Translations under genes and position numbers: made by a program
NCBI GenBank assembly: GCA_040755615.1
Contig: JBFMAL010000009.1
Coordinates: forward strand, 3,155 to 67,154
Direction: 5' to 3'
DNA: 64,000 bases
Origin: Bacillota bacterium
GTDB taxonomy: Bacteria; Bacillota; Sulfobacillia; DUSP01; DYEP01
Notes under the pieces: model-generated
What the model saw: only the letters and a program-made list of their open reading frames with translations
Told to the model about the DNA's origin: nothing
Databases searched by the model: none
Shown: piece by piece, positions 42,608 to 60,054 of the stretch
Layout: every line of letters starts with the position of its first letter
Position numbering within the stretch: position 1 is the first letter of the stretch

Positions 42608-44812
42608 TTACATAAGCGGAGGCATGGTGAGAGCCGGATGACCCTTCTCCTCAAGGAACGGAAGGATCTCCTCGGCTGTGCAGCCTACGTCCTCGTCAGC
42701 GATCTTATCGATGAAGTCCGCTCCGAGTCCTTCCTCTTCAGACCTCTTCACGAATTCATCGCGCAAGAATTCTTTCAGCTCTTTGGGCATCCACACGATC
42801 CGTCTGATGCCCCCGTCCGCGGCGATAAACTTCCTTGAGTTGATGTAGCTGCGCCCGATACCCATAAAACCAGGTGTCTGCGCCCCGCCGCCTACCATGC
42901 CAGCGAGCGTGGAGAAGGTCATCCCAACCGGTGTCATCAGCTTTGAGGACTCGCGGGTGGTGATCATGATGCCGTTGGCCTCCGGCACAATCGCCATGAT
43001 CGCCTCGAAGCAGCCGCAGGATGTCATAGGCTTCTCCATGAGGGTGTAGATACACACGCCCTCCACACTCCTGTTGGAGTTCTTGTAGACGAACTCGTCC
43101 ACGGACTTCCACACGCCCTTGACCTCGTCCTCGCAGTATCCCTTGGGAATGGGCTGGTTGGGGCCTGTCGGGTTGATCTGGTAAGACGCCTTGCCGTCAA
43201 GCCAGGTCACCGCGCCGCAGAGTCCCACCCGCTCGGGCGTCACCACGCATACGTGGTTGGGCGCGAATGACTGGCACAGCGAGCAGCTGTAAAACTCCTG
43301 CACTGCATCGTCAGTGAGCCCGCGCATGCGCGCGTCTCTGGTGGCGTAGCGTTCTTTCGCCACTTTCAGTTTCTCCCTGACCAGCGCTTCGTCGGTGATG
43401 ATGGTCACCTGCACCCGGTCTACGATGGAAGGAAACTCCGACTTGAACTTGGCGACCAGGATGTCCCCGATGTGTCTCATCCGGAAGCCCTTTGCGAATG
43501 CCTCCTTCGATACGCGCACCCAGGCCAGATCTCTTTGCGCTACGTGCCAGAGCCCCTCGGCGTAGTTCACAAAGTAGTGGATGCGCCGCTCGAGGACAGG
43601 TTCGAAGTCCTCCTGCATCTTCCTGCCGTAGATATCCACCATGAGCCCAAGCGGCAGCGCGCTGCCTTCGGGTATAGAATCCACGTCCGGGCCTATGAGC
43701 TCCACTTTTTCGTCTTCAATCTCATCCAGGTTTACCATGCGCAAGAGTTCGAACGCGGGTGTCTTGCCTCCACCGAATTCCGCGTGCACGTCAGCCTTGC
43801 GGATGGTCTCGCCCTCGAACGCGGGGCCGAAGTTGAGCGGTATGGGTATCTCTACGGAAGTCAGCTTGATACCCCTGAGCTCCATGGCAAACTTCACCAG
43901 GTCGCTGTAATCGGGGTGTGACACGTACCAGTCGGGCACTTCCTCATCCAGCTCCTGGTCGGTGATGACGGGAAAGCCCAGGAATATGGCGCCGAAATGG
44001 GCCGCCACCTTGACTTCGTCGATCTCGCCGAGCTGCAGCACGAATGCGCGCACCCGGCGCCTTTGGTAATCCCTCTGCTCCGCGCGCTTGCCTGGCTGTA
44101 TGCCGCCGAACGCAAGTCCCGCGCGAAGCGCGTAGTTTACAGCATGAACCACCTGCGTGAAGTTACCCACCGGGAAGCAGATGTAGTCCACGCCCATCTT
44201 CATATCTTCTTCGAGAAGCTGTTCGATGATCTCGTCAGAGAGGAAGATCATCATGCCCTTGCCCATGAGCTCCTCGACCAGCTTCTTTGCAGCTTTTGAA
44301 TCTTTCGCGCGTCCAAGGATGACGGCCTGACCAGGTATGGTCCAGTCCACCAGCTTGATGCCGTAACGCCGCACGGCAGGATCAGGCAGAAAGCCCGTCC
44401 AGGGCTCGTGCTTGGGCTCGTCGTTGTTGACGTAATGCAGCGCCTCAATTATCTCTGCCGCATAGAGCGTGGCTTCACCAGCGAGCCGGGCGTTTTCGAA
44501 CGTCAGCTCCTCCTTAATCTGAGACCGAATGCGGTTTAATATGGGGACCAGTTCCCCGAGCCGTGTGACCCTCTCTCCGCTCAAGGCGGTGATCACCGGC
44601 AGGTTGTACGCGGTGTCTGGGTAAGCCACTTCCTTGTCGGGGCCGTGCTCCCTGAGGGCCTGGCTCAGGAGGATCTCGGCGTAGCTAGTGGCGATGATGG
44701 CACCGTCGTAGCACCGCTTGAACAGCTTCTTTGGCGCCTTGTCCGGGTCCTTGATCGCCCCTTCATAGATTTTGTCAAACTCCGTTATACGGGGTTCCCA
44801 TGTGTTAAGCAT
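42608..44812 (-). CDS. acsB: acetyl-CoA synthase catalytic subunit (ACS, A-cluster subunit)
   Basis: 734 aa with the A-cluster Cys region (CGCFE, CSLCQSFAPNHVC). Adjacent to cooS. Confidence 0.9.
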   Translation of the reverse strand: MLNTWEPRITEFDKIYEGAIKDPDKAPKKLFKRCYDGAIIATSYAEILLSQALREHGPDKEVAYPDTAYNLPVITALSGERVTRLGELVPILNRIRSQIKEELTFENARLAGEATLYAAEIIEALHYVNNDEPKHEPWTGFLPDPAVRRYGIKLVDWTIPGQAVILGRAKDSKAAKKLVEELMGKGMMIFLSDEIIEQLLEEDMKMGVDYICFPVGNFTQVVHAVNYALRAGLAFGGIQPGKRAEQRDYQRRRVRAFVLQLGEIDEVKVAAHFGAIFLGFPVITDQELDEEVPDWYVSHPDYSDLVKFAMELRGIKLTSVEIPIPLNFGPAFEGETIRKADVHAEFGGGKTPAFELLRMVNLDEIEDEKVELIGPDVDSIPEGSALPLGLMVDIYGRKMQEDFEPVLERRIHYFVNYAEGLWHVAQRDLAWVRVSKEAFAKGFRMRHIGDILVAKFKSEFPSIVDRVQVTIITDEALVREKLKVAKERYATRDARMRGLTDDAVQEFYSCSLCQSFAPNHVCVVTPERVGLCGAVTWLDGKASYQINPTGPNQPIPKGYCEDEVKGVWKSVDEFVYKNSNRSVEGVCIYTLMEKPMTSCGCFEAIMAIVPEANGIMITTRESSKLMTPVGMTFSTLAGMVGGGAQTPGFMGIGRSYINSRKFIAADGGIRRIVWMPKELKEFLRDEFVKRSEEEGLGADFIDKIADEDVGCTAEEILPFLEEKGHPALTMPPLM

Positions 44813-44841: not shown

Positions 44842-46851
44842 TTACCAGTGGACCGCGACCGGCGTCTCATACTTCTCCGCCGCGGCCCTGTGGATTTTCA
44901 GCTTCCACACCCTGTACTCGAGGGCGTCGATGATCTTCCGGGCACCCTCTGCCGGGTCTTGCTCGAGGATGAAGTGCCCGCCGTAAACATCGTGGGCGAT
45001 CTGGGTGGCGATGCCGTATACCAGCTGGCTGCCTTCGAGGGGTGGCATCACGCCGACGTGTACGGGCAGTCCCATGGCGACGCACCAGGACCCGATGGAC
45101 ACGGCCTTTTCATGCATAGCCTCCGGCGCGCTCGCTGCGAACGGTACCTTGGGGACGTCCACTCCCAGGTCGTTCGCCATATCGGTGCACAGGTCCATCG
45201 CCCTCGTGTTGTCCACGCAGGAGCCCATATGCAGCACTAAAGGCAGCTCGACTCCAGCAGCCCCGCCCACGCGCTTCAAGAACGACTTAAGCCCTTCGCC
45301 GGCGTACGCGTCCACTGCTGCGGGTGTCAAAAGGCCCGACTTGGCGAATGCGCCTGCGGCGCAACCGGTTGCAAGGAGCAGCACGTTGTTCTTTGCCAGT
45401 TCCGTTGCGATGTAGACATGGGATTCATCCTGCATGATCCGCAGGTTGTTGCACCCTGCGAATAGGCAGACGCCAAGGAGCTCGCCGGAGAGTATGGCGT
45501 CGTTAATCACCCTCACTGGGTTTTCGCGGTTAGTCGCAGAGAGGATCTCATAGATCGCTTCCCTGCTGAAGCCCGCGATGGCTTCGTTCTTCACCGAAGG
45601 TATCCTCACGCGCTTTTCATCTCTCTCGCGGAACGCCGAGATGGCCAACCTCACCATCTCTTTGGCAGTCTCAAGCGCGCGTTCCTCCTGGAAGTCGAAG
45701 TGGTAGGAGGATGGGATCTTCGCCGTCTCAGAAGTAGTGATGAACCTGGTGTGGAAGCACTCAGAAAGTGGCTTGAGAGCGGGCATGATACACTGGACGT
45801 CCACTACCATGGCGTCGAGCACGCCGGTCAAGACCGCCAGTTCCTGGGAGGCCTGGTTGCCGGCGAGCGCCACGCCCTGGCGCATGAGCAGCTCGTTTCC
45901 AGTGCAGCAGATGCCGCACACCTTGATTCCTTTGGCCCCTACGCTCCTGGCTTCAGCCTGGAGCTGTTCTGCGGCCTCAACGATCATCTCAGACAGCGTG
46001 GGGTTATGCCCGTGTACTGCGATGTTCACATATTCCTTGTCTAGGACGCCGAGGTTCGCCTCAGTCTTTATGGGTCGTGGGGTGCCAAAAAGGATATCGG
46101 ATAGGTCTGTTGTGATGTGCATTCCGGTAAAGTCCACGAGAGAGGTCTTAAGAGCTCCGAAAATGATGTTCACGGGATCGGAGTCCATGCCCATAGTGGT
46201 CTGGTCCATGATCTCCACGACGGCCCTGTCGACCGCGGTGGGCAGGATGTCACAGTGTTTGAACTTCTTCCTTCTGCCCTCTGTGATGTTGTTCCAGAGC
46301 CATTTGGGCGGGTCGTCAGTAAAGCTGTGGTAGTCATCAAGAGCGGCCAGCGCCACCTCGCGCACCAGTTCCCGGTCAGACTTGCCTTCTGTCTCTATGC
46401 CCATCTGCCGGGCCACAGCAGACAGCTTATTCGGGTCTGATACCTTGTAATCCGGCGCCTTGCCTTCCGCCATCTTAAGCACTGTCTTGGCGACGTGGTG
46501 CCCGTGCTGGGAATGGCACGCTGCGCCTCCTGCCACCAGCCTCGCGTAATTACGTGCGACGATGGTGTAGTCCGAGGCGCCGCAGATACCCTTCTGGTTC
46601 GCCTCGCTCTTTGAACTGATGCGGCACGGACCCTGGATGCAGTTCCTGCAGCAGATACCTGTCAGCCCGAAGCCGCACTGGGGCTGCTGCGCGACGTACC
46701 GTTGGAATGCGGTGATCGCGCCCTGCTCCTCCGCCATACACAGCACCTCATGACATGCCGCGTCGGACGTGCGCTTGGGGTCGGTAATCTTCTGCCTGCT
46801 GGTGGCTTGATTCTTCAAGTCACCGAGCCGGACGTTCCTGAATCTCGGCAC
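44842..46851 (-). CDS. cooS: Ni-dependent carbon monoxide dehydrogenase catalytic subunit (GTG start)
   Basis: B/D-cluster N-terminal Cys motifs (CGFGLTGICCRNCIQGPCRI), C-cluster ligands. GGGGGT RBS before GTG at 46851. Confidence 0.9.
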   Translation of the reverse strand: MPRFRNVRLGDLKNQATSRQKITDPKRTSDAACHEVLCMAEEQGAITAFQRYVAQQPQCGFGLTGICCRNCIQGPCRISSKSEANQKGICGASDYTIVARNYARLVAGGAACHSQHGHHVAKTVLKMAEGKAPDYKVSDPNKLSAVARQMGIETEGKSDRELVREVALAALDDYHSFTDDPPKWLWNNITEGRRKKFKHCDILPTAVDRAVVEIMDQTTMGMDSDPVNIIFGALKTSLVDFTGMHITTDLSDILFGTPRPIKTEANLGVLDKEYVNIAVHGHNPTLSEMIVEAAEQLQAEARSVGAKGIKVCGICCTGNELLMRQGVALAGNQASQELAVLTGVLDAMVVDVQCIMPALKPLSECFHTRFITTSETAKIPSSYHFDFQEERALETAKEMVRLAISAFRERDEKRVRIPSVKNEAIAGFSREAIYEILSATNRENPVRVINDAILSGELLGVCLFAGCNNLRIMQDESHVYIATELAKNNVLLLATGCAAGAFAKSGLLTPAAVDAYAGEGLKSFLKRVGGAAGVELPLVLHMGSCVDNTRAMDLCTDMANDLGVDVPKVPFAASAPEAMHEKAVSIGSWCVAMGLPVHVGVMPPLEGSQLVYGIATQIAHDVYGGHFILEQDPAEGARKIIDALEYRVWKLKIHRAAAEKYETPVAVHW

Positions 46852-47011
46852 TTAGGTTTACCCCCTTTGCAATAAATAAATGATACAACAAAGCCAGGTC
46901 CTCTGGCATTGACATACATAGAACAGGCCGTGTATGCTTTCGACAATTGTTACACAAATCCTCTTACAGAACCTACTCCCCGCCCTGCCATATAACGTAC
47001 ATGCTGGTGAT

Positions 47012-47620
47012 TCACCCCTCGGAACGGGCGAGGGCCATCAGGGTGTACACCGTCTGCGCTGCCAGTACTACGAGGTCCTCCGTACAAAGATAGGTGGGCG
47101 CTGTGGCGTCAAACAGGATGTTACCCTGGGCAGGCACCTCGTCGTCGCCCTGCCACAGCACGAAAGTGAGTGGCACCCTGGGTAATGCGTCAAGCGCCAC
47201 CGAGCAATGTCCTATCTCCTCCTTTCTTCCTCCCAGGGCAAGTGCCGCCCTGACCAACACCTCGGGACGCGCGCGGAAACACCGCACCATCGGCTGGACG
47301 GTACGCGCAATGAACGGCCCGGTATAGATCTCGCCTCCAGGGAGCCGGCGAAATGACAGGTATTCTCCCCTGACAGGCAGGCCGCTGGCACCGAGCAGAT
47401 AATGGAGGATAAGGATCTCATCAACGGGGTTTTCGTACCTATCCCCGCCTAGAAATACCAGGCCTTCTTGAGCGTCCACCGAGAATTCCCGGCCGATGTA
47501 CGTGAGGTGTAGCCGATGCCCGTCATACCTTGCACCAGCCAGCCTGGCGCTTTCAGCTGGATCAAGTGCCTTCATTCTGGCTCTGGCGAGACGGAGTGCT
47601 GCCGTATAGTTCATTGGCAT
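47012..47620 (-). CDS. DUF3786-type protein commonly found at the head of CODH/ACS operons
   Basis: 202-aa ORF directly upstream of cooS on the same strand. Resembles the conserved acs-associated hypothetical family; call from memory. Confidence 0.55.
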   Translation of the reverse strand: MPMNYTAALRLARARMKALDPAESARLAGARYDGHRLHLTYIGREFSVDAQEGLVFLGGDRYENPVDEILILHYLLGASGLPVRGEYLSFRRLPGGEIYTGPFIARTVQPMVRCFRARPEVLVRAALALGGRKEEIGHCSVALDALPRVPLTFVLWQGDDEVPAQGNILFDATAPTYLCTEDLVVLAAQTVYTLMALARSEG

Positions 47621-47663
47621 CTGGTATCAACCTTTTTGTGAAATTTCTGTATCCTATCAATGG

Positions 47664-47688
47664 AAAAAGCCGGATATCTATTCCGGCC
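47664..47688 (-). terminator. intrinsic terminator / attenuator hairpin in the acs-operon leader
   Basis: Minus strand reads GCCGGA-auagaua-UCCGGC followed by UUUUU, about 45 nt upstream of the DUF3786 start. Confidence 0.6.
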
Positions 47689-47797
47689 TTCCTGATTCGC
47701 GTCCCTATTACAGTGGTATTTCCTCCGTTTTACCCCCAAGAGCTTTTCCCCGCTTTATCTGATTTTACGTCTTTAGCGTACTTATCATTATGATGAT

Positions 47798-47814
47798 TAT
47801 AACATTGTTATAAT
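47798..47814. promoter_or_regulatory. perfect 8-1-8 inverted repeat TTATAACA-t-TGTTATAA overlapping extended -10 elements (TGTTATAAT on both strands), in an AT-rich island
   Basis: Directly read from sequence. A flanking imperfect Fur/PerR-like palindrome CTTATCATTATGATGATTATAAC lies at 47780-47802. Confidence 0.5.
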
Positions 47815-48041
47815 AATGAGTCAAAGAATAACGTATGTTCTGCATTTCACATTCTTCACTCGCGGATTCGTGTTCATCCTGCTCTTTGGCATTTGAAAGC
47901 ACATTTGTTGGACTTGCATCGCAAACGAGACTCCAGTGCCCCACCGTTTCTATAGCCAACACCGGTACGGGAGGCCTGCTGCACGTACCCAGCTGCACCG
48001 AGAACAGACTGCAGCAGACGAACGCCTCGTCGCCGAGCAGT

Positions 48042-48455
48042 TTAGCCTTCGATCCTATAAGATGATATCACCCGTATGTCAGGATGCAGCGAATGCCTGA
48101 CGGTGCAGTACTTGTCCGCAAGCTGCAGCGCCCGTTCCAAAGCCTCGGGCGCAAACGGACCGCCGGACAGCACGTACTCAAGATGAATCTCCTGAAACCG
48201 CGCGGTCGCTTCCTCCGGCCGGGTAGCCTTGACCTCCACCCTCAACCGTGTCACGAGGAACTTCATCTTGTCCAATATGTCAAGCAGCGTGATGGCGCCG
48301 CAGGCAGCCAGCGCCTCAAGCAGCAGGTGAGTGGGCAGCGGCTTGTCCTTACCCACCAGTGTGGGCGGTCCATCGTCAACTGTGGCATGGAAGTTCCTAT
48401 TTCCTATCCACGTTATATCGAGCGCGTAGTGTTTCACCTTTTCATCCTCCCCCAT
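48042..48455 (-). CDS. OsmC/Ohr-family peroxiredoxin-like protein
   Basis: OsmC-like fold sequence with paired Cys (ALAACGAIT ... KYCTVRHSL). Confidence 0.65.
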   Translation of the reverse strand: MGEDEKVKHYALDITWIGNRNFHATVDDGPPTLVGKDKPLPTHLLLEALAACGAITLLDILDKMKFLVTRLRVEVKATRPEEATARFQEIHLEYVLSGGPFAPEALERALQLADKYCTVRHSLHPDIRVISSYRIEG

Positions 48456-48667
48456 CTTTCTTTCGGTGTCCTCTCAGAAAGTCCTAACCGCCGGTAGTTT
48501 GAGCTTTCGGAAGACGCATCTCAGGTTTTTCTCGATTTCCCCAAACGGATGCATGCCGTCCTCGAGCCGTCAAGGCTCCTGCTCTCCTCAATCACTTACT
48601 TCGGCTCTATTCCCACGTCTTCCCAGGGAGTTTCTGCGTGTTTCCGAGAGCACTCTTTCGCTGAAGA

Positions 48668-48701
48668 CGAAAATGGGGCGCCGGTCTCCATACAGCGCCC
48701 C
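48668..48701 (-). terminator. intrinsic terminator downstream of the aminotransferase gene
   Basis: GGGGCGC-N13-GCGCCCC hairpin followed by AUUUUCGUCUUC on the minus strand. Confidence 0.6.
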
Positions 48702-48712
48702 CGCGTGACTGA

Positions 48713-49906
48713 TTATGCCCTAAGCACCCGGGCTATTCTCTCCGTTGCCCAGTCCATTTCCTCTTCGGAGATGATAAGAGGCGGAGCAAACCGGATGATG
48801 TTGTAGTGCGTCTCCTTGGCGAGCACTCCCGCCTCCATAAGTCTTTCGCAGTACGGGCGCGCATCCGTATCCAGCTCCACTCCGAGGAGCAGGCCCCTGC
48901 CACGTATCTCCCTGATATGCGGATTCTGGATGGCCAACAGCCTCTCTTTAAACAGCTGGCCCATCTTGAGGGATCTCTCCACCAGGTTTTCCTCAATGAT
49001 CACCTCGATCGCCGCGACGCCCACCGCTGCAGCCAGCGGGTTGCCGCCGAAGGTAGAGCCGTGGGAACCGGGTTCAAATACGCCGAGAATATCGTCGTCG
49101 GCGGCGACTGCCGATACAGGATACACCCCTCCGCCGAGCGCTTTACCCATCACATAGACGTCGGGTTTGACGCCTTCCCAGTCGCAGGCGAACATCTTGC
49201 CGGTGCGTCCAAACCCGGTCTGTATCTCGTCCGCGACAAACAGTACGTTGTTCTGCTTGCACAGCTCGTATGCCTCCCGCAGGTAGCCCTCGGGCGGTAT
49301 CCTGATGCCAGCTTCGCCTTGGATGGGCTCTACCAGGAACGCCGCAGTGTTCTCGTTAATGGCCCCTCTTAAGGCCTCTATGTCGCCGTAGGGTACAACG
49401 CGGAATCCCGGGGTGAACGGTCCATATCCTCTTCTGTAGGCTTCTTCAGACGAGAAGGAGACGATGGTCACCGTGCGGCCGTGGAAATTACCCTCGCAAG
49501 CGATGATTTCCGCTCTGTCCTCGGGCACTTTCTTCGTCCTGTAGGCCCAGCGCCTGACAGCCTTTATCGCCGTCTCCACCGCCTCGGCGCCGGTGTTCAT
49601 CGGGAGCACTTTCTCCTTACCGGTCACCTCCGCCACTTTGGCATAAAACAGGCCGAGTTTGTCATTGTGGAACGCCCGCGATGTCACGGTAACCCTGTCT
49701 GCCTGCTCCTTGAGAGCGGAGATGATCCGGGGGTGCCTGTGCCCCTGGTTCAGTGCGGAGTATGCGCTGAGCATGTCCATGTATCTCCGGCCTTCGGGAT
49801 CCTCTACCCAAACCCCCTCTGCCTTGGAGATCACAATCGGCAGGGGATTGTAGTTGCGCGCACCATATTTCTCTGTAAGTTCAATGATTTGGCGGGTACT
49901 TGTCAT
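48713..49906 (-). CDS. ornithine/acetylornithine-family class-III aminotransferase
   Basis: Class-III PLP aminotransferase motifs ([22 protein letters not shown]). Closest in overall pattern to ornithine--oxo-acid transaminase. Confidence 0.8.
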
Positions 49907-50081: not shown

Positions 50082-51260
50082 TCAGGAGCGCTGCGGTTCG
50101 GGAAGTGGGTGAGTCTCACCGGCGCGCTCAACGGCCGCCCGGGCTGCAACTGGCCCCACAAACTCGTAGAACAGCACCGAGGCCAGAAGCAACGTGGTAA
50201 TGACGGCTCCTACCTCGGGAAACTTCTGCTGTACCGTGAGCGCGAGCCCAACGCCCACGCCGGCCTGCGGGAACAGCCCGAGCCCCATGTTCTGGCTTAC
50301 CGATGCAGGCAGTTGAAGGAGTCTGCCGCCCAGGTACGCGCCGGTGACCTTACCCAGCGCCCTGGACAGGATGTAAACAAAGCCTGCCAGCCCCACCCGC
50401 GGTAGTATACGCACGTCAAGTTCTGCGCCTGCCACCACAAAAAAGGCGACCAGGAGCGCCTGGGCCATCTCTTCCATGTCGCGGGGGACCCGCTTCCTGG
50501 CTCCAGGCCAGTTGGACATCACCATCCCCAGGGCCATTGCGGATAGAAGCGGAGACAAGTCGAGCGCCAGAGAGAGTCCAACCGTGAGCGAAATGGACGC
50601 AAGGTTCGCCGTGATCAGTTCCCCCCTGTCCCTCATGTCAGAAGTCAGGAGCACAAGCGCAGTCCCGACGAATGCGCCAAGGGCAATGGACCAAAACACT
50701 TCGACAAGGGGAGGAATGAAAATGGAAAGCCCCGCTACGGTACCCCGAAACAGGGACCTCGATAGGGAGAGGATAAAACCGAAGAACAATATGGCTATCA
50801 CATCACCGATGCCCACCAGCACCAGCAGCTTGTCAGTAAATGGTCCATGCGCATGGTACTCCTTGGCGATAGCGAATATGGTGGCGGGGGACGCCGCGAT
50901 GGCTAGGGCGCCCAGGATGAGGGCAACAGGCAGCACGATGCCAGCCAGCGAAAGACCGGCCACCACTGCGGTCGCGGTCACCAGCCCCTGAAACAGGGCG
51001 AGCGCGAGGACCCTCGTATTCTTCCTGAGCAGCACCACCTCAAATTCGCTTCCGACAGAAAACGCGACAAATCCCAGCGCAAACATGGTAAGCGGCCGGA
51101 GCAGCACCAGCGTCTCCTCGGATAGCACTCCGAGCCACGACGGGCCTGCCAAAAGTCCTACTAGCAGGTAGCCCGTGACCGAGGGCAGCCCGAGCCTCCT
51201 CAGGAGCACAGATCCCGCCAGCCCGGCAAAGAGTATCGCACCGAGCAGTACGAGGTTCAT
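50082..51260 (-). CDS. cation:proton antiporter family membrane transporter
   Basis: About 12 predicted TM helices, CPA-type N-terminus (LLGAILFAGLAGSVLLRRLGLPSVTGYLLVGLLAGP). Confidence 0.75.
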   Translation of the reverse strand: MNLVLLGAILFAGLAGSVLLRRLGLPSVTGYLLVGLLAGPSWLGVLSEETLVLLRPLTMFALGFVAFSVGSEFEVVLLRKNTRVLALALFQGLVTATAVVAGLSLAGIVLPVALILGALAIAASPATIFAIAKEYHAHGPFTDKLLVLVGIGDVIAILFFGFILSLSRSLFRGTVAGLSIFIPPLVEVFWSIALGAFVGTALVLLTSDMRDRGELITANLASISLTVGLSLALDLSPLLSAMALGMVMSNWPGARKRVPRDMEEMAQALLVAFFVVAGAELDVRILPRVGLAGFVYILSRALGKVTGAYLGGRLLQLPASVSQNMGLGLFPQAGVGVGLALTVQQKFPEVGAVITTLLLASVLFYEFVGPVAARAAVERAGETHPLPEPQRS

Positions 51261-51604
51261 CGGGCTTCACCCCCGAACGCCCCTCCTATCACTTCATCCA
51301 CGGGAATACTGAACAGGAGGCCCGTCCCGGGCCTTTCAAAGTGTTCCATCACTTCCGCAACAGCGGCCATGGCGCGCCGTATGACCCCGTCCTCTGCCAG
51401 GGCGATAAGGGTGGTGTTATGGGACCTGTTCCTTCGCATCAGCCGCCTAAGCCCCACCAGCACCGGCCCTGCGCCGCTATGCCCTCCCCGCCCTACCCCT
51501 GCGCTCTCTACCACAGTGACCCCGGCGACCCCTGATGCATGCAACGCCTCGATCACTTCGTCAAGCCGCTCGCTGCTGTTTACTACGATGAACAGTGCCT
51601 TCAA
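51257..51604 (-). CDS. P-II-like signal-transduction protein (GlnB-fold) adjacent to the antiporter
   Basis: GlnB-like pattern ALFIVVNSSERLDEVIEALHASGVAGVTVVESAGVGRGGH. Start uncertain (TTG at 51604 or GTG at 51613); 4-nt overlap with the antiporter. Confidence 0.5.
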   Translation of the reverse strand: MKALFIVVNSSERLDEVIEALHASGVAGVTVVESAGVGRGGHSGAGPVLVGLRRLMRRNRSHNTTLIALAEDGVIRRAMAAVAEVMEHFERPGTGLLFSIPVDEVIGGAFGGEAR

Positions 51605-51644
51605 ATGAATCACCCCGGGGTTATTCTTCCCCGGGGCGCTGTCA

Positions 51645-52049
51645 TCACTCAAGCCACTCCAGGACTTCCTCAATCGGTGCGTCCCACGCTGCGCGGGACG
51701 CTTCTTTCTCTCCCAATTCCTGCACCATCGTCTGAAAGCGCTTTCTCGCCTCCGGCTTGACCCGGACCCGCACTCGCCTATCCTGCCAGAAGAACTCCGC
51801 CTCGGGAACGCCGTCCTCGACGGCCTTGATGTTCCCCTTGCCGAAAGTGCAGCCGGTGCCCAGCTGAATCCCGTCGTTCAAACAAGATACCGGCGGTGTG
51901 GTGCCCGCTTTAGAGAGCACGCGCGGCCCGAAATACCGGGGAGCGCCCAGCCTGTCTATGGCCGCTTGTCCCATTCTGTATCCGAGTACGACGAAGGGAC
52001 CGAGGTGGCCGTGGAAGCGTTCCACTTCATCTATTGTCCACGCGCTCAT
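51645..52049 (-). CDS. FmdE-domain protein (formylmethanofuran dehydrogenase subunit E-like, no zinc ribbon)
   Basis: FHGHLGPFVVLGYRMG and C..DG.QLGTGCTFGKGN FmdE signature. Confidence 0.65.
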   Translation of the reverse strand: MSAWTIDEVERFHGHLGPFVVLGYRMGQAAIDRLGAPRYFGPRVLSKAGTTPPVSCLNDGIQLGTGCTFGKGNIKAVEDGVPEAEFFWQDRRVRVRVKPEARKRFQTMVQELGEKEASRAAWDAPIEEVLEWLE

Positions 52050-52639
52050 CTTGCGTTCTCTCCTCTTACGTATCTTAAAGCGTGTGACTTCTCCACAAGG
52101 TACACCAGGCCGGGTATGAGCACCACTTGCAGCAGCACGCCAGGCAGCCCAGACACAAGTCCCGCTGTGATTGGATACAGAATTGGCACCCGGCTGATCC
52201 CAAACAGGGGCAGCACCAGGTAAGCCACTGTGCCGTAGGCAAGCCTGCCTGCCAGGGCCACAATAGTTACAACAAAGAAGGGGTTCAACCTGAACCTCGA
52301 ATAAAGAAGGCCTGCTAATCCCCCATAGATCGCGAGTTCGAACACCATGCCCTGGGCTACCGGCGGCATAAGCGGCGGCATACCCGTGAGCAGCGCTGAC
52401 AACATGGGCGTCACCGCGCCGACCGCAAGCCCCACTTCCGGGCCCACCAGCATACCCCCGAGAATCACGGGGATGTGCATAGGCAAGAATACCTTGCCCA
52501 GCCCAACCATGTGAAACGAAATAGGCAACAGGATCCCAAGCGCCACGAAGAGAGCCGTCAGTATCAGTTTTCGTGTGGTCTTCAAACTAGTACCTCCCTT
52601 TTCATCCGGCGCTGCTGGTCTCCAGCGCAGGAAGGCCAC
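52046..52639 (-). CDS. ECF-transporter S-component-like small membrane protein
   Basis: 197 aa, about 6 TM helices, Gly/Pro-rich helices typical of ECF substrate-capture proteins. Substrate not assignable. Confidence 0.45.
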   Translation of the reverse strand: MAFLRWRPAAPDEKGGTSLKTTRKLILTALFVALGILLPISFHMVGLGKVFLPMHIPVILGGMLVGPEVGLAVGAVTPMLSALLTGMPPLMPPVAQGMVFELAIYGGLAGLLYSRFRLNPFFVVTIVALAGRLAYGTVAYLVLPLFGISRVPILYPITAGLVSGLPGVLLQVVLIPGLVYLVEKSHALRYVRGENAR

Positions 52640-52713
52640 AGCCAGACCGGCCGCAGCCCTCCGTTTGACGGATTGATCCGCCGTTTCCCCACTATGTGCT
52701 GCAGGTCAGCTCT

Positions 52714-52902
52714 TTACCTGCTCTCAAGAATGATCCTGTGATCGACCAACCTCAGTTCTTTTATGTGTGCTTTCAGTCTTTTTTGTTCACCGAAAATGCT
52801 CTCAAGGTAGACCTCGTCGCCCTCTGGCCTCAGTACGTCCACCGATTCCATCACAAGCTCTTCCTTGCCATCGCGGACGACGTACGCGTTGGACTCGCAC
52901 AT
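52714..52902 (-). CDS. cooT: CooT-family small nickel-binding protein
   Basis: 62-aa protein starting MCESNAYV with Cys2, the hallmark of the CooT family. Confidence 0.55.
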   Translation of the reverse strand: MCESNAYVVRDGKEELVMESVDVLRPEGDEVYLESIFGEQKRLKAHIKELRLVDHRIILESR

Positions 52903-52905
52903 GTC

Positions 52906-53316
52906 TCATGCCTCCATCTTCTGGATCTGTGCAACTAGCATATCGATTAAGTGTGGAAGCGGCTCATCAGGGGTCCCGGCCACCCAGACTCCGGATCGGT
53001 TCAGGGGGAGCAGGTACTTCTTCGCCTTGGATTCGCCCACCGCCTTCACCATACGTACGGTGACCTCGCCCATCATTGAGTTGGCCAAGAGGATGGAGAG
53101 GGTCCCCACTATCACGTCCACTTCAAAGCAGGAGTGACATATGGCGTTCTCACCCGTGCCTCCCATGTTCGCTCCGGCCTTCATCATAGCCGATGTAGCA
53201 TGGGCATTCGTGCCCAGCGCCCACACTTCTGTGCCTTCAGGCATCGCCTTTCTTATCTTTTCCACGAGCCGTGCCCCTATTCCTCCTCCCTGACCGTCGA
53301 TCACCGCGATCCTCAT
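52906..53316 (-). CDS. conserved hypothetical protein (GGGIG-motif family; DUF3842-like from memory)
   Basis: MRIAVIDGQGGGIGARLVEKI start with 4-nt ATGA overlap to lgt. The track ORF is extended to 53520 without support. Confidence 0.45.
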   Translation of the reverse strand: MRIAVIDGQGGGIGARLVEKIRKAMPEGTEVWALGTNAHATSAMMKAGANMGGTGENAICHSCFEVDVIVGTLSILLANSMMGEVTVRMVKAVGESKAKKYLLPLNRSGVWVAGTPDEPLPHLIDMLVAQIQKMEA

Positions 53317-54050
53317 TGTCCAGCCCTTCCTTTCGCGTAAACCGATATGGCCAGCGCAATCCCTATGATAAACAGACTGCCGAGCTGCGCGACACTCAAG
53401 AACGGTGTGAGCCGCCACACTTCCCGGAATGACTCCACGATGATGCGCACTACTGAGTATCCTATGAGGAAGTACACGAATTGCTGCCCCGGGTAGGCTG
53501 TGCGTGTTCTTCGGAGCCACAGGAACACAAAAAGTCCGAACGAAAGCAGCATCTCATAAAGCTGTGTCGGATGCCTAAGTCCCGCAACGTACCTCGTGGC
53601 AACCGCCCAAGGAAGATCCGTGGGCAGGCCGTAACAGCAGCCATTCAGGAAACAACCGATCCTCGCGATGGCAATCGCCAGTGCGATGGCAGGGCTTACC
53701 AGGTCTGCAAGAGTGAAGAAGGAGATCTTATACTTCCTCGTAAACCAGATGCCCATAAGTACTCCGGCGGCGAGTCCGCCGTGGAGCGAGAGGCCCCCTT
53801 CGTACACCACCAGGATCTGCCTCGGATTGGCGAGGTAAGTCCTCCAGTCAAACAGGACAAACAGGAGCCTTGATCCGATCACCCCTGCGATCAGGCTGTA
53901 GAACGAAAGGTCAATGATAGCTTCGGGCTTTACGCCTAACCTCGGGGCGTCCCTGGCAGCCACCAACGTGGCTGCCAGGAACCCCAATCCCAGCATGAGC
54001 CCGTAGCTGTACACGTTCAGAGGGCCGAACCGAAATAGTACGGGGAACAT
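53313..54050 (-). CDS. lgt: prolipoprotein diacylglyceryl transferase
   Basis: Lgt signature (YGLMLGLGFLAA, H-103/Y-235-like conserved residues, G-rich Lgt motif GLRHPTQLYE). Confidence 0.85.
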   Translation of the reverse strand: MFPVLFRFGPLNVYSYGLMLGLGFLAATLVAARDAPRLGVKPEAIIDLSFYSLIAGVIGSRLLFVLFDWRTYLANPRQILVVYEGGLSLHGGLAAGVLMGIWFTRKYKISFFTLADLVSPAIALAIAIARIGCFLNGCCYGLPTDLPWAVATRYVAGLRHPTQLYEMLLSFGLFVFLWLRRTRTAYPGQQFVYFLIGYSVVRIIVESFREVWRLTPFLSVAQLGSLFIIGIALAISVYAKGRAGQ

Positions 54051-59382: not shown

Positions 59383-60054
59383 TTATATCTCGATATACCC
59401 ATCGGGAGGCTGTTCTTTGAACGCATCCAGTTCCATGCCTTCCACGGCGCTCTTGATGTGAAGCGCCATGCTTTCACAGGCCTGTGCTGCGTCCTTCGTG
59501 GCGAGCGCGTCGATAATACGTGAGTGCTCCTTCATGGATGGGTTGACCTCCATCTGGTAGAACGGGTCAAATAGGATAAGGTAAATAGTGGTCTTGCTCA
59601 CGATATCAACGATGTACTGCTTGAGAACGAGGTTGCCGGAGGCTTCCGCGATCGCGTAATGAAACCTATCATTAATCTTGTAGTAGGCCTCAACGTCCCT
59701 CTGTTCGAATACCCTGGACTCCTCAGCCACGCACTGCCTGAGCTGTTCGAGCAGCTCGGGTGTTACAAAAGGCGCGGCTAAAGCGGCGGCATGCTTCTCC
59801 AGGATCTCGCGCACCTCAAATGCCCAGAGCACCTCTTCCTTGGTAGGCTTTATGACGAACGCCCCCCGGTGGGGGATGATCTCCACAAAGCCTTCGTACA
59901 CGAGCCTTCTTATGGCACCTCGGACTGGAGTGCGGCTCACACCGAGCTGCCGGGCGATGCTCTCCTCCACCAGCTGCCCCCTCGGCCTTATGTACCTCTT
60001 TATGATCGCCTTCTTCAGCCTGGCATAGACCAGGTCCTCCATGGTTTCGGACAA
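59383..60054 (-). CDS. GntR-family transcriptional regulator (FadR/FCD-type C-terminal domain)
   Basis: wHTH ESIARQLGVSRTPVRGAIRRLVYEGFVEI. Confidence 0.8.
   Translation of the reverse strand: MSETMEDLVYARLKKAIIKRYIRPRGQLVEESIARQLGVSRTPVRGAIRRLVYEGFVEIIPHRGAFVIKPTKEEVLWAFEVREILEKHAAALAAPFVTPELLEQLRQCVAEESRVFEQRDVEAYYKINDRFHYAIAEASGNLVLKQYIVDIVSKTTIYLILFDPFYQMEVNPSMKEHSRIIDALATKDAAQACESMALHIKSAVEGMELDAFKEQPPDGYIEI

Follow-up and report, generated by a model that had tools for sequence, protein, structure and literature searches.

The regulation of the Wood-Ljungdahl pathway in bacteria is poorly understood, and the locus described here raises the question of how one short control region could serve a whole carbon-fixation module. 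The subject is a 64-kb stretch of DNA from the metagenome-assembled genome of an uncultivated Bacillota lineage (the window, i.e. the whole stretch that was analysed; overall GC content 59.8%, or 0.598). On its minus strand, a DUF3786 gene, cooS and the acs genes of the carbon monoxide dehydrogenase/acetyl-CoA synthase (CODH/ACS) open a long series of genes, and in front of DUF3786 lies an AT-rich island at 47706..47899. This island appears to hold the sole obvious promoter for about 37 co-directional genes, with a terminator before the first of them. We suggest, with a probability of roughly 0.5, that the region contains the main sigma-A promoter and an untranslated leader of ~170 nt of the DUF3786-cooS-acs (Wood-Ljungdahl) cluster, that the terminator in this leader would act as an attenuator and that the dyads over the -10 element are candidate repressor sites.

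A protein search with DUF3786 returned a single close homologue (P0002, 88% identity); the next relatives are at most 50% identical. The contig that carries P0002, L001, is syntenic with the window from a Na/H exchanger through OsmC and DUF3786 to acs, and a Logan contig (L003) is identical to the window. All statements about conservation made below rest on two distinct sequences, the window and L001. As a neutral yardstick, the third codon positions of neighbouring genes are 64–83% identical between the two, and unconstrained intergenic DNA is fully turned over, with 3/12 and 7/18 identical positions in two spacers and large indels. Against this background L001 keeps the promoter, a Per-like box, a 55-nt leader block, the GC core of the hairpin, its U5 tract and the ribosome-binding region, but not the symmetry of a 19-bp palindrome. 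What is observed directly is the elements themselves, how rarely they arise by chance and how far this one relative keeps them. More distant DUF3786 loci came from a genome scan (at least 80 loci, each at most 45% identical).

The island is the only stretch of at most 36% GC in the window. Over 100 nt, the GC fraction falls to 0.26–0.29 around 47750-47850 (minimum 0.26), against ~0.6 in the flanks, which bears out an earlier preliminary description of an AT-rich island in a GC-rich genome. Promoter scans of the window and L001 identify a -35 hexamer TTGACT (47819..47824, minus strand) and, after a spacer of 17 bp, an extended -10 element TGTTATAAT (TGnTATAAT; 47804..47796, hexamer 47801..47796). 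The extended -10 directed at the acs operon had been recognised in the preliminary description and is real, while its pairing with TTGACT had been overlooked. The combination TTGACT-17 bp-TG-T-TATAAT matches a sigma-70-type promoter at 11/12 positions plus the TG, and it is the best match, and the only one of its quality, in 64 kb. L001 carries a match to a sigma-70/sigma-A promoter of identical quality (11/12 plus TG). All the elements of such a promoter are thus seen in the sequence: a TTGACA-like -35, a spacer within 16–18 bp, a TATAAT -10 and the optional TGn. Promoter geometry alone places the predicted transcription start at 47788..47790 (~47789), 6–8 nt past the -10.

The promoter block (47854-47787) is identical at 61/68 positions in L001, compared with 64–83% at the third codon positions of the neighbours. 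It opens with GAATGTGAAATGCAGAACATACG (47832..47854, minus strand), a block upstream of the -35 that is 22/23 identical in L001 and marks the 5' edge of conservation. This block, a mere half-match to CRP/FNR- or Rex-type sites, is a candidate activator or UP-type site. The promoter block closes at the 3' edge of the Per-like box, which is the exact point where conservation ends: the following 12 nt (about +3 to +14) are scrambled in L001 and form the spacer with 3/12 identical positions. The proposal that the island is the control region of the DUF3786-cooS-acs cluster is supported.

An intrinsic-terminator-like element occupies 47664..47693 on the minus strand. It consists of an A-rich 5' flank, the stem GCCGGA/UCCGGC (47687-47682 / 47674-47669), the 7-nt loop AUAGAUA and U5 (47668-47664). 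The hairpin lies ~126 nt past the predicted start, and 43 nt separate U5 from the ATG at 47620, so the terminator that had been described about 45 nt before the first start codon is present, at 47687..47664. A permissive terminator scan of the window was too unspecific in GC-rich DNA, and a strict one was used instead (at least six Watson-Crick pairs, at least four of them GC, a loop of 3–9 nt, then T5). With this definition the leader hairpin is the sole hairpin-plus-T5 site on either strand of the 64 kb, and such a site arises in 7/20000 shuffles of the intergenic region. The element has what an intrinsic terminator requires in sequence, i.e. a GC stem of at least five pairs, a short loop and an adjoining U tract, and it works in one direction only, as its tail on the plus strand is CUUCCUGA.

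L001 differs at three positions in or beside the loop and has A-U in place of one G.U pair, but it shows no change in the GCCGG/CCGGC core or in U5. The preservation of the core and U5 beside a turned-over spacer indicates selection on the terminator at its position. The core folds at -10.7 kcal/mol, and the A/U extension brings this to about -15 kcal/mol, whereas the core of the terminator at the end of the aminotransferase gene further upstream reaches -17.2 kcal/mol. The leader hairpin is thus the weaker of the two, which fits partial or adjustable termination. The aminotransferase terminator itself (48675-48701, minus strand) has the form GGGGCGC...GCGCCCC plus AUUUUCG and is kept in L001.

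Could transcripts of the cluster avoid the hairpin? Two candidates for a promoter downstream of it were rejected: TGATAGGAT (47659..47651), as an extended -10, has a G in L001 in place of the invariant final T, and the two copies of TTGATA, as -35 elements, have no usable -10 partner. No sigma-70-like promoter conserved in L001 was found within the 43 nt that separate the hairpin from the ATG. The spacer between DUF3786 and cooS was also considered as the place of a promoter for cooS itself, and this was discarded, as none is conserved. It follows that transcripts of the cluster should start at 47789 or further upstream and pass the hairpin, and since no L001-conserved promoter fits downstream of it, the hairpin may well act as an attenuator. 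That it is an expression checkpoint is plausible.

We therefore propose no more than the following order of events, in which the transcription start, termination in vivo, regulated read-through and repressor binding are what we infer from the elements above. RNA polymerase would start at ~47789 on the minus strand and, after ~126 nt, meet the hairpin at 47687-47669 plus U5; the share of polymerases reading through would then set the expression of the operon. The same hairpin would also end transcripts arriving from the upstream OsmC gene. A trans-acting factor, ribosomes moving along the leader or simply the hairpin's moderate strength would be a more probable determinant of read-through than a metabolite-binding aptamer. 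A repressor at the AT-rich dyads over -10/+1 would occlude the promoter. Of the arrangement first put forward for this locus, an operator plus a riboswitch or attenuator, the promoter, the candidate operator and the terminator in the leader have stood up, while the riboswitch has not.

The number of genes behind this possible checkpoint is large. About 37 co-directional minus-strand open reading frames (ORFs) extend from 47620 down to ~4889 (~43 kb). Gaps above 80 nt are almost absent, the largest being 160, 79 and 57 nt. The run includes DUF3786, cooS, acsB/C, RACo, cooC, acsD/E, an HdrA-like gene and genes for a corrinoid protein and its activator, as well as three FlpD/MvhD-like genes, a MetF/MetV-like gene, fumarase, Fe-S proteins and HSP20. 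The whole run may be transcribed as a single unit of great length; alternatively, coding DNA may conceal internal promoters. If read-through is conditional, the island would put the entire carbon-fixation module of an uncultivated Bacillota lineage under one switch and would be a compact part for the engineering of acetogens; if it is constitutive, the island would be an ordinary strong promoter with a structured leader.

The dyads over the -10 element need to be considered separately. The preliminary description reported a perfect 17-bp palindrome at 47798-47814. The repeat is real and unique, but these coordinates are off by 1 nt and it extends to a perfect 19-bp palindrome (9-1-9), ATTATAACA-T-TGTTATAAT, at 47796..47814. 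Its core, TTATAACAATGTTATAA at 47797-47813, occurs once in the window. That a dyad overlaps the -10 element is confirmed, and arms as long as 9-1-9 arise in only 9–11 of 3000 dinucleotide shuffles of the island (~0.3%). The palindrome can also be read as two TGTTATAAT boxes back to back, at 47804..47796 and 47806-47814 on opposite strands. L001 has TTgTAACAATGcTATAA instead, with two non-compensatory changes by which the symmetry is lost. Despite these changes TGnTATAAT (sense) and TGTTACAAT (antisense) are both kept: one change hits the unspecified base of TGn in the sense orientation, the other the third position of the hexamer on the antisense strand (TACAAT), and promoters tolerate substitutions at both.

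This leads to the most serious of the alternative explanations, to which we give a real but less than even chance: the 19-bp palindrome would not be an operator but two extended -10 boxes that happen to lie back to back in low-complexity AT-rich DNA, possibly with divergent transcription. The pattern of substitutions in L001, which breaks the symmetry and spares the positions that matter for a promoter, is what one would expect in this case. In addition, near-symmetry of the -10 element is reported to create bidirectional promoters (Warman et al. 2021, as cited in PMC10268837), and here -10-like hexamers lie on both strands within the dyad. However, symmetric bidirectional promoters are defined by start sites 7–25 bp apart, with an optimum of 18 bp (PMC10268837), while the boxes in the window do not overlap and the predicted divergent starts are ~32 bp apart, outside that range. 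Furthermore, there is no plus-strand gene upstream, and the rarity of a perfect 9-1-9 dyad for the local composition also speaks against a chance juxtaposition.

The better operator candidate, and the better conserved of the two dyads, is the neighbouring Per/Fur-like 7-1-7 box TTATAATCATCATAA (47802..47788), which covers the -10 and the predicted +1 and is kept with one mismatch in each genome. The palindrome, which had been taken as the key dyad, is less well conserved than this box. The imperfect Fur/PerR-like palindrome that had been seen beside the -10 corresponds to it, at 47788-47802. Compared with the Per consensus TTATAATnATTATAA there is one mismatch in the window, and one at another position in L001. 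A match of such quality arises in 3/5000 local shuffles; given that TATAAT is present, the chance is ~0.9%. In sequence, the box is what is looked for in an operator of the PerR/Fur family, a 7-1-7 inverted repeat (TTATAATnATTATAA or TGATAATnATTATCA) overlapping a promoter, and Per boxes are known as AT-rich dyads that repress sigma-A promoters (PMC12754779). The resemblance to Fur-family operators thus lies in an AT-rich 7-1-7 dyad over -10/+1 that is one mismatch from the consensus in both genomes. In contrast to Fur-family systems, 6 of the 14 specified positions of the box come from the -10 hexamer itself, no second Per-like site (at most three mismatches) that could define a regulon was found in the window, and no Fur-family domain occurs among the 36 window ORFs scanned.

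Other regulators fit less well. The operator of Rex has the consensus TTGTGAAnnnnTTCACAA or TTGTTAAnnnnTTAACAA, and sites of the CRP/FNR/CooA type have the form TGTGA-N6-TCACA or TGTCA-N6-TGACA. No Rex site with at most two mismatches to this consensus occurs in the 350 nt before DUF3786, be it in the window, in L001 or at 84 other listed loci, and no exact match to a CRP/FNR/CooA-type site lies upstream of DUF3786 in the window, L001 or the other listed loci. The closest sequence, TGTGA-AATGCA-GAACA at 47851..47836, has two mismatches in the second CRP-type half-site. An 8-mer, TGTGAAAT, is present as two isolated Rex-type half-sites at 47844-47851 (minus) and 47637-47644 (plus), inverted and with ~200 bp between them. 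L001 conserves the two copies. About 2–3 repeated 8-mers are expected by chance in 421 nt; a regulator that loops DNA could use the pair as half-sites, or the repetition may be accidental.

Several observations weigh against the combination of attenuator and repressor sites that we propose. The two sequences compared provide no compensatory base changes. No regulator gene lies close to the promoter, the nearest being a GntR/FCD protein at 60054..59383, and repression of an oxygen-sensitive, iron-rich enzyme by a PerR/Fur-type protein is without obvious physiological logic. The ATAAT/ATTAT repeats of AT-rich DNA yield several overlapping dyads. In the leader, the identity of the 55-nt block (85%) is in effect no higher than the third-position identity of cooS and acsB (82–83%). 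No antiterminator able to pair with the 5' arm of the terminator was found, the best duplexes (-6.2 and -6.8 kcal/mol) lying at non-homologous positions in the two genomes, and no candidate effector for the leader was found either. Finally, leader terminators are not enriched upstream of DUF3786 in general, with 19 sense and 21 antisense sites in 86 listed upstream regions.

The first alternative for the hairpin itself, which we consider rather unlikely, denies it a regulatory role: it would serve constitutively as a leaky terminator or insulator for OsmC transcripts and perhaps stabilise RNA, with the strong acs promoter outweighing the loss. In both genomes no terminator separates OsmC from the acs promoter. 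The first one that polymerases leaving OsmC would meet is the leader hairpin, and thus it should end OsmC read-through also under the attenuator reading. In L001 just 60 nt separate the aminotransferase gene from OsmC, and OsmC is there without an obvious promoter of its own. The moderate stability of the hairpin, which drops quickly with heat (about -8 kcal/mol with flanks at 60 C), would suit a leaky element, and in a sister lineage (L002) the leader hairpin (about -40 kcal/mol) lacks a U tract. However, an insulator is expected upstream of the promoter that it protects, not downstream, and the retention in L001 of the GC core and U5 next to turned-over sequence is also hard to reconcile with this explanation.

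A further set of explanations assigns a sensing function to the leader RNA. Between the promoter and the hairpin lies a conserved purine-rich block of 55 nt with three G-runs, GGGGAAAA, GGGGGUAAAA and GGAGGAAAU (47712..47766, minus strand), identical at 47/55 positions in L001. It is bounded on both sides by the poorly conserved spacers mentioned above, and the second of these, the 18 nt from the block to the hairpin (47694..47711, minus strand), is the one with 7/18 identical positions. It can be speculated, as a doubtful extension of the attenuator reading, that the block and hairpin-U5 together form an undescribed conditional terminator, which would represent a novel class of riboswitch or be recognised by a novel RNA-binding antiterminator, and which would gate the ~43-kb cluster, with its single promoter, in response to a pathway signal such as CO, Ni, CoA/acetyl-CoA, folate or redox state.

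In its narrower form, with the purine-rich block as the aptamer of a new metabolite sensor and hairpin-U5 as its expression platform, this idea is improbable. The layout of promoter, ~126-nt leader, terminator, 43 nt and ATG is that of a riboswitch, and the discrete conserved block between non-conserved flanks agrees with it. But Rfam 15 gave no match in the whole window at gathering thresholds, and at E<=10 nothing usable in the 801-nt region 47400-48200, the sole match being int-alpA (E = 9.2) on the hairpin; the minus-strand leader thus matches no known RNA family. The leader folds no better than its shuffles (z = -0.26), the failure to find a consistent pairing with the terminator 5' arm leaves it without a competing antiterminator, and the linker beside the terminator is the turned-over one. 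RNAalifold does propose a long-range helix in which the G-rich block pairs with the ribosome-binding region and with which two one-sided G.U-to-A-U changes are compatible, but it is no more stable than 62–75% of shuffled controls. Both genomes could form a local hairpin, AGCGG...CUCU-loop-GGAG...CCRCU, without compensatory support, and the one change within its candidate P1 helix (AGCGG/CCRCU) disrupts a pair in the window. Similar leaders are also absent from 85 other listed DUF3786 loci, and two metagenome pattern scans gave no matches, although these scans also missed the L001 contig, so that the collection is without this lineage. A conserved aptamer fold and mutually exclusive helices, by which a transcriptional riboswitch is generally known, are not seen in the two sequences available. 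Thus, the leader is not a recognisable riboswitch, and the riboswitch part of the preliminary description finds no support. A protein-dependent or otherwise unrecognised mechanism may still be compatible with these null results on structure.

The region after the hairpin (47621..47663, minus strand) is the translation-initiation region of DUF3786, with a weak Shine-Dalgarno (SD) sequence, AAAGG, 10 nt before the ATG, and 41/43 positions identical in L001. The 43 nt before the ATG were considered as a specially conserved element and rejected, since the stretches upstream of the aminotransferase and cooS starts are equally conserved in the genome pair.

Ribosomes could in principle act on the hairpin. 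A mechanically called upstream ORF (uORF) of 42 codons (47611..47739, minus strand) has a TTG start with GGGG 8 nt upstream, crosses the terminator and ends with a stop in ATGA, which overlaps the second ATG of DUF3786 (MNYT...). Many DUF3786 homologues begin at the residue matching this second ATG (MNY...). In the pyrBI attenuator of E. coli, a leader ORF is translated through the terminator, and by analogy a ribosome on the 42-codon frame would block the hairpin and re-initiate on DUF3786 at the second ATG. The two systems are alike in a frame of ~42–44 codons across the hairpin that ends at the first structural gene; the window frame, however, is only predicted, its peptide is unconserved, the host is a member of the Bacillota and the operon is unrelated. 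Such coupling is very improbable here, even though neither genome interrupts the frame or shifts its stop, a GGGG precedes it, it ends at the N-terminus of many homologues and the annotated DUF3786 start has a weak SD only. Substitutions are distributed 7/9/6 over the three codon positions and 15/16 differing codons are non-synonymous, so the peptide does not appear to be under constraint, i.e. there is no coding signature. Moreover, an open frame of 42 codons is not rare in purine-rich sequence (an estimated ~0.07 per frame), and no gene is called at the uORF in L001. Because transcription in Bacillus subtilis proceeds largely uncoupled from translation, the mechanism is less likely in Bacillota. 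If the uORF is translated, it is possible but unlikely that the act of translation matters in a pyrBI-like manner, and only that act could.

The weakest explanation takes a separate small RNA of ~126 nt, terminated at the hairpin, as the main product and the operon mRNA as a read-through by-product. It can draw on a strong promoter followed by a clean terminator and on the conserved transcribed block, whose three SD-like G-runs might sequester C-rich RNAs or proteins that bind GGA, but it is the least probable of all since it leaves a ~43-kb cluster in need of high expression without any other promoter, matches no Rfam small RNA and finds no second copy or homologue of the block elsewhere.

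The attenuator reading can be compared with known systems. Attenuator leaders of Bacillota (riboswitch, T-box, PyrR, TRAP and LicT-type) share with the window a sigma-A promoter, a leader of 100–200 nt, a terminator near the first start codon and the need for read-through. However, they contain a sensor fold and a competing antiterminator, neither of which is detectable in the window leader, where the 18 nt adjoining the terminator are unconserved. Among CODH/ACS operons, a 5' leader reportedly controls the Methanosarcina cdh operon after initiation (Anderson et al. 2009, J Bacteriol 191:7123, cited in PMC3600222). That leader is likewise said to be long and untranslated, but it is much longer, unrelated in sequence and served by archaeal machinery. 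In bacteria, the carbonyl-branch (acs) operon of Eubacterium limosum has a structured 5' untranslated region (5'UTR) of 129 nt, which is linked to translational down-regulation (PMC6260860). Here too a long structured leader before a bacterial CODH/ACS operon is implicated in post-transcriptional control, although control is reported to act on translation efficiency and the text examined mentions no leader terminator (PMC6260860). The earlier statement that no such control had been described for CODH/ACS operons was therefore too strong, given the 5'UTR of E. limosum (PMC6260860) and the leader reported for Methanosarcina. A leader terminator of a bacterial acs operon was not found described in the literature examined. 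In Clostridium autoethanogenum, a TetR-family protein activates Wood-Ljungdahl genes through an unusual motif in their promoters (PMC6873888).

How general is this arrangement among DUF3786 loci? The 85 other listed loci share no Rex, CRP, CooA, Per-like or palindrome motif and no cluster of G-runs, and BLAST detected no homologue or second copy of the leader block in them. In a different lineage with the gene order DUF3786-cooC-cooS (L005, 300-400, and L006, 3900-4003), a conserved TTGACC-18-TATAAT promoter is followed by a leader of ~95 nt, in which a CCCC-loop-GGGG hairpin, then UUUU or UCUU, stands directly before a GGGGG SD. It is possible that the CCCC pairs with either G-run and forms an SD-sequestering switch. 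Long structured leaders before acs operons thus recur, and the design in the window appears to be lineage-specific.

All genes near the island lie on the minus strand. Upstream of the cluster are the aminotransferase gene (49906..48713) and the OsmC-like gene (48455..48042), followed by the 421-nt intergenic region between OsmC and DUF3786 (48041..47621). The cluster is headed by DUF3786 (47012..47620, Pfam assignment) and continues with cooS (46851..44842) and acsB (44812..42608); after acsB come acsC, RACo, cooC, acsD and acsE, then Hdr/Mvh-like and methylene-tetrahydrofolate-reductase genes.

The spacer between DUF3786 and cooS (46852-47011, minus strand), whose overall fold is not unusual, contains a block GAGGATTTGTGTAACAATTGTCGAAAGcATACACGGCCTGTT that is conserved at 55/58 positions. 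Within it are a palindrome ACAATTGT, inverted arms GTGTA..TACAC and the 7-mer TGTCGAA, which we take to be similar to a Spo0A 0A-box. The block and the L001 acs promoter have GTAACAAT in common. Just downstream of the block, a hairpin is followed by TTTGTTG at 46907-46893; the sequence differs in L001 and the hairpin persists.

Two window-specific insertions, both missing in L001, flank OsmC: a GC-rich one of ~175 nt at 47866-48041 (fold z-score -0.28) and one of ~197 nt at 48456-48655. Neither is repeated elsewhere in the window or in the fetched loci, and an origin of the AT island or the 175-nt insert from a repeat or mobile element was rejected as BLAST gave no further copy.

Further upstream, both genomes keep a cluster (window 51257-53520; L001 688-2750) of DUF3842, the S component of an ECF transporter, an FmdE-like protein, a P-II-like protein and the Na+/H+ exchanger, in which CooT, a nickel chaperone, is called in L001. 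This DUF3842/CooT/ECF cluster may be a module that supplies nickel or a cofactor to CODH.

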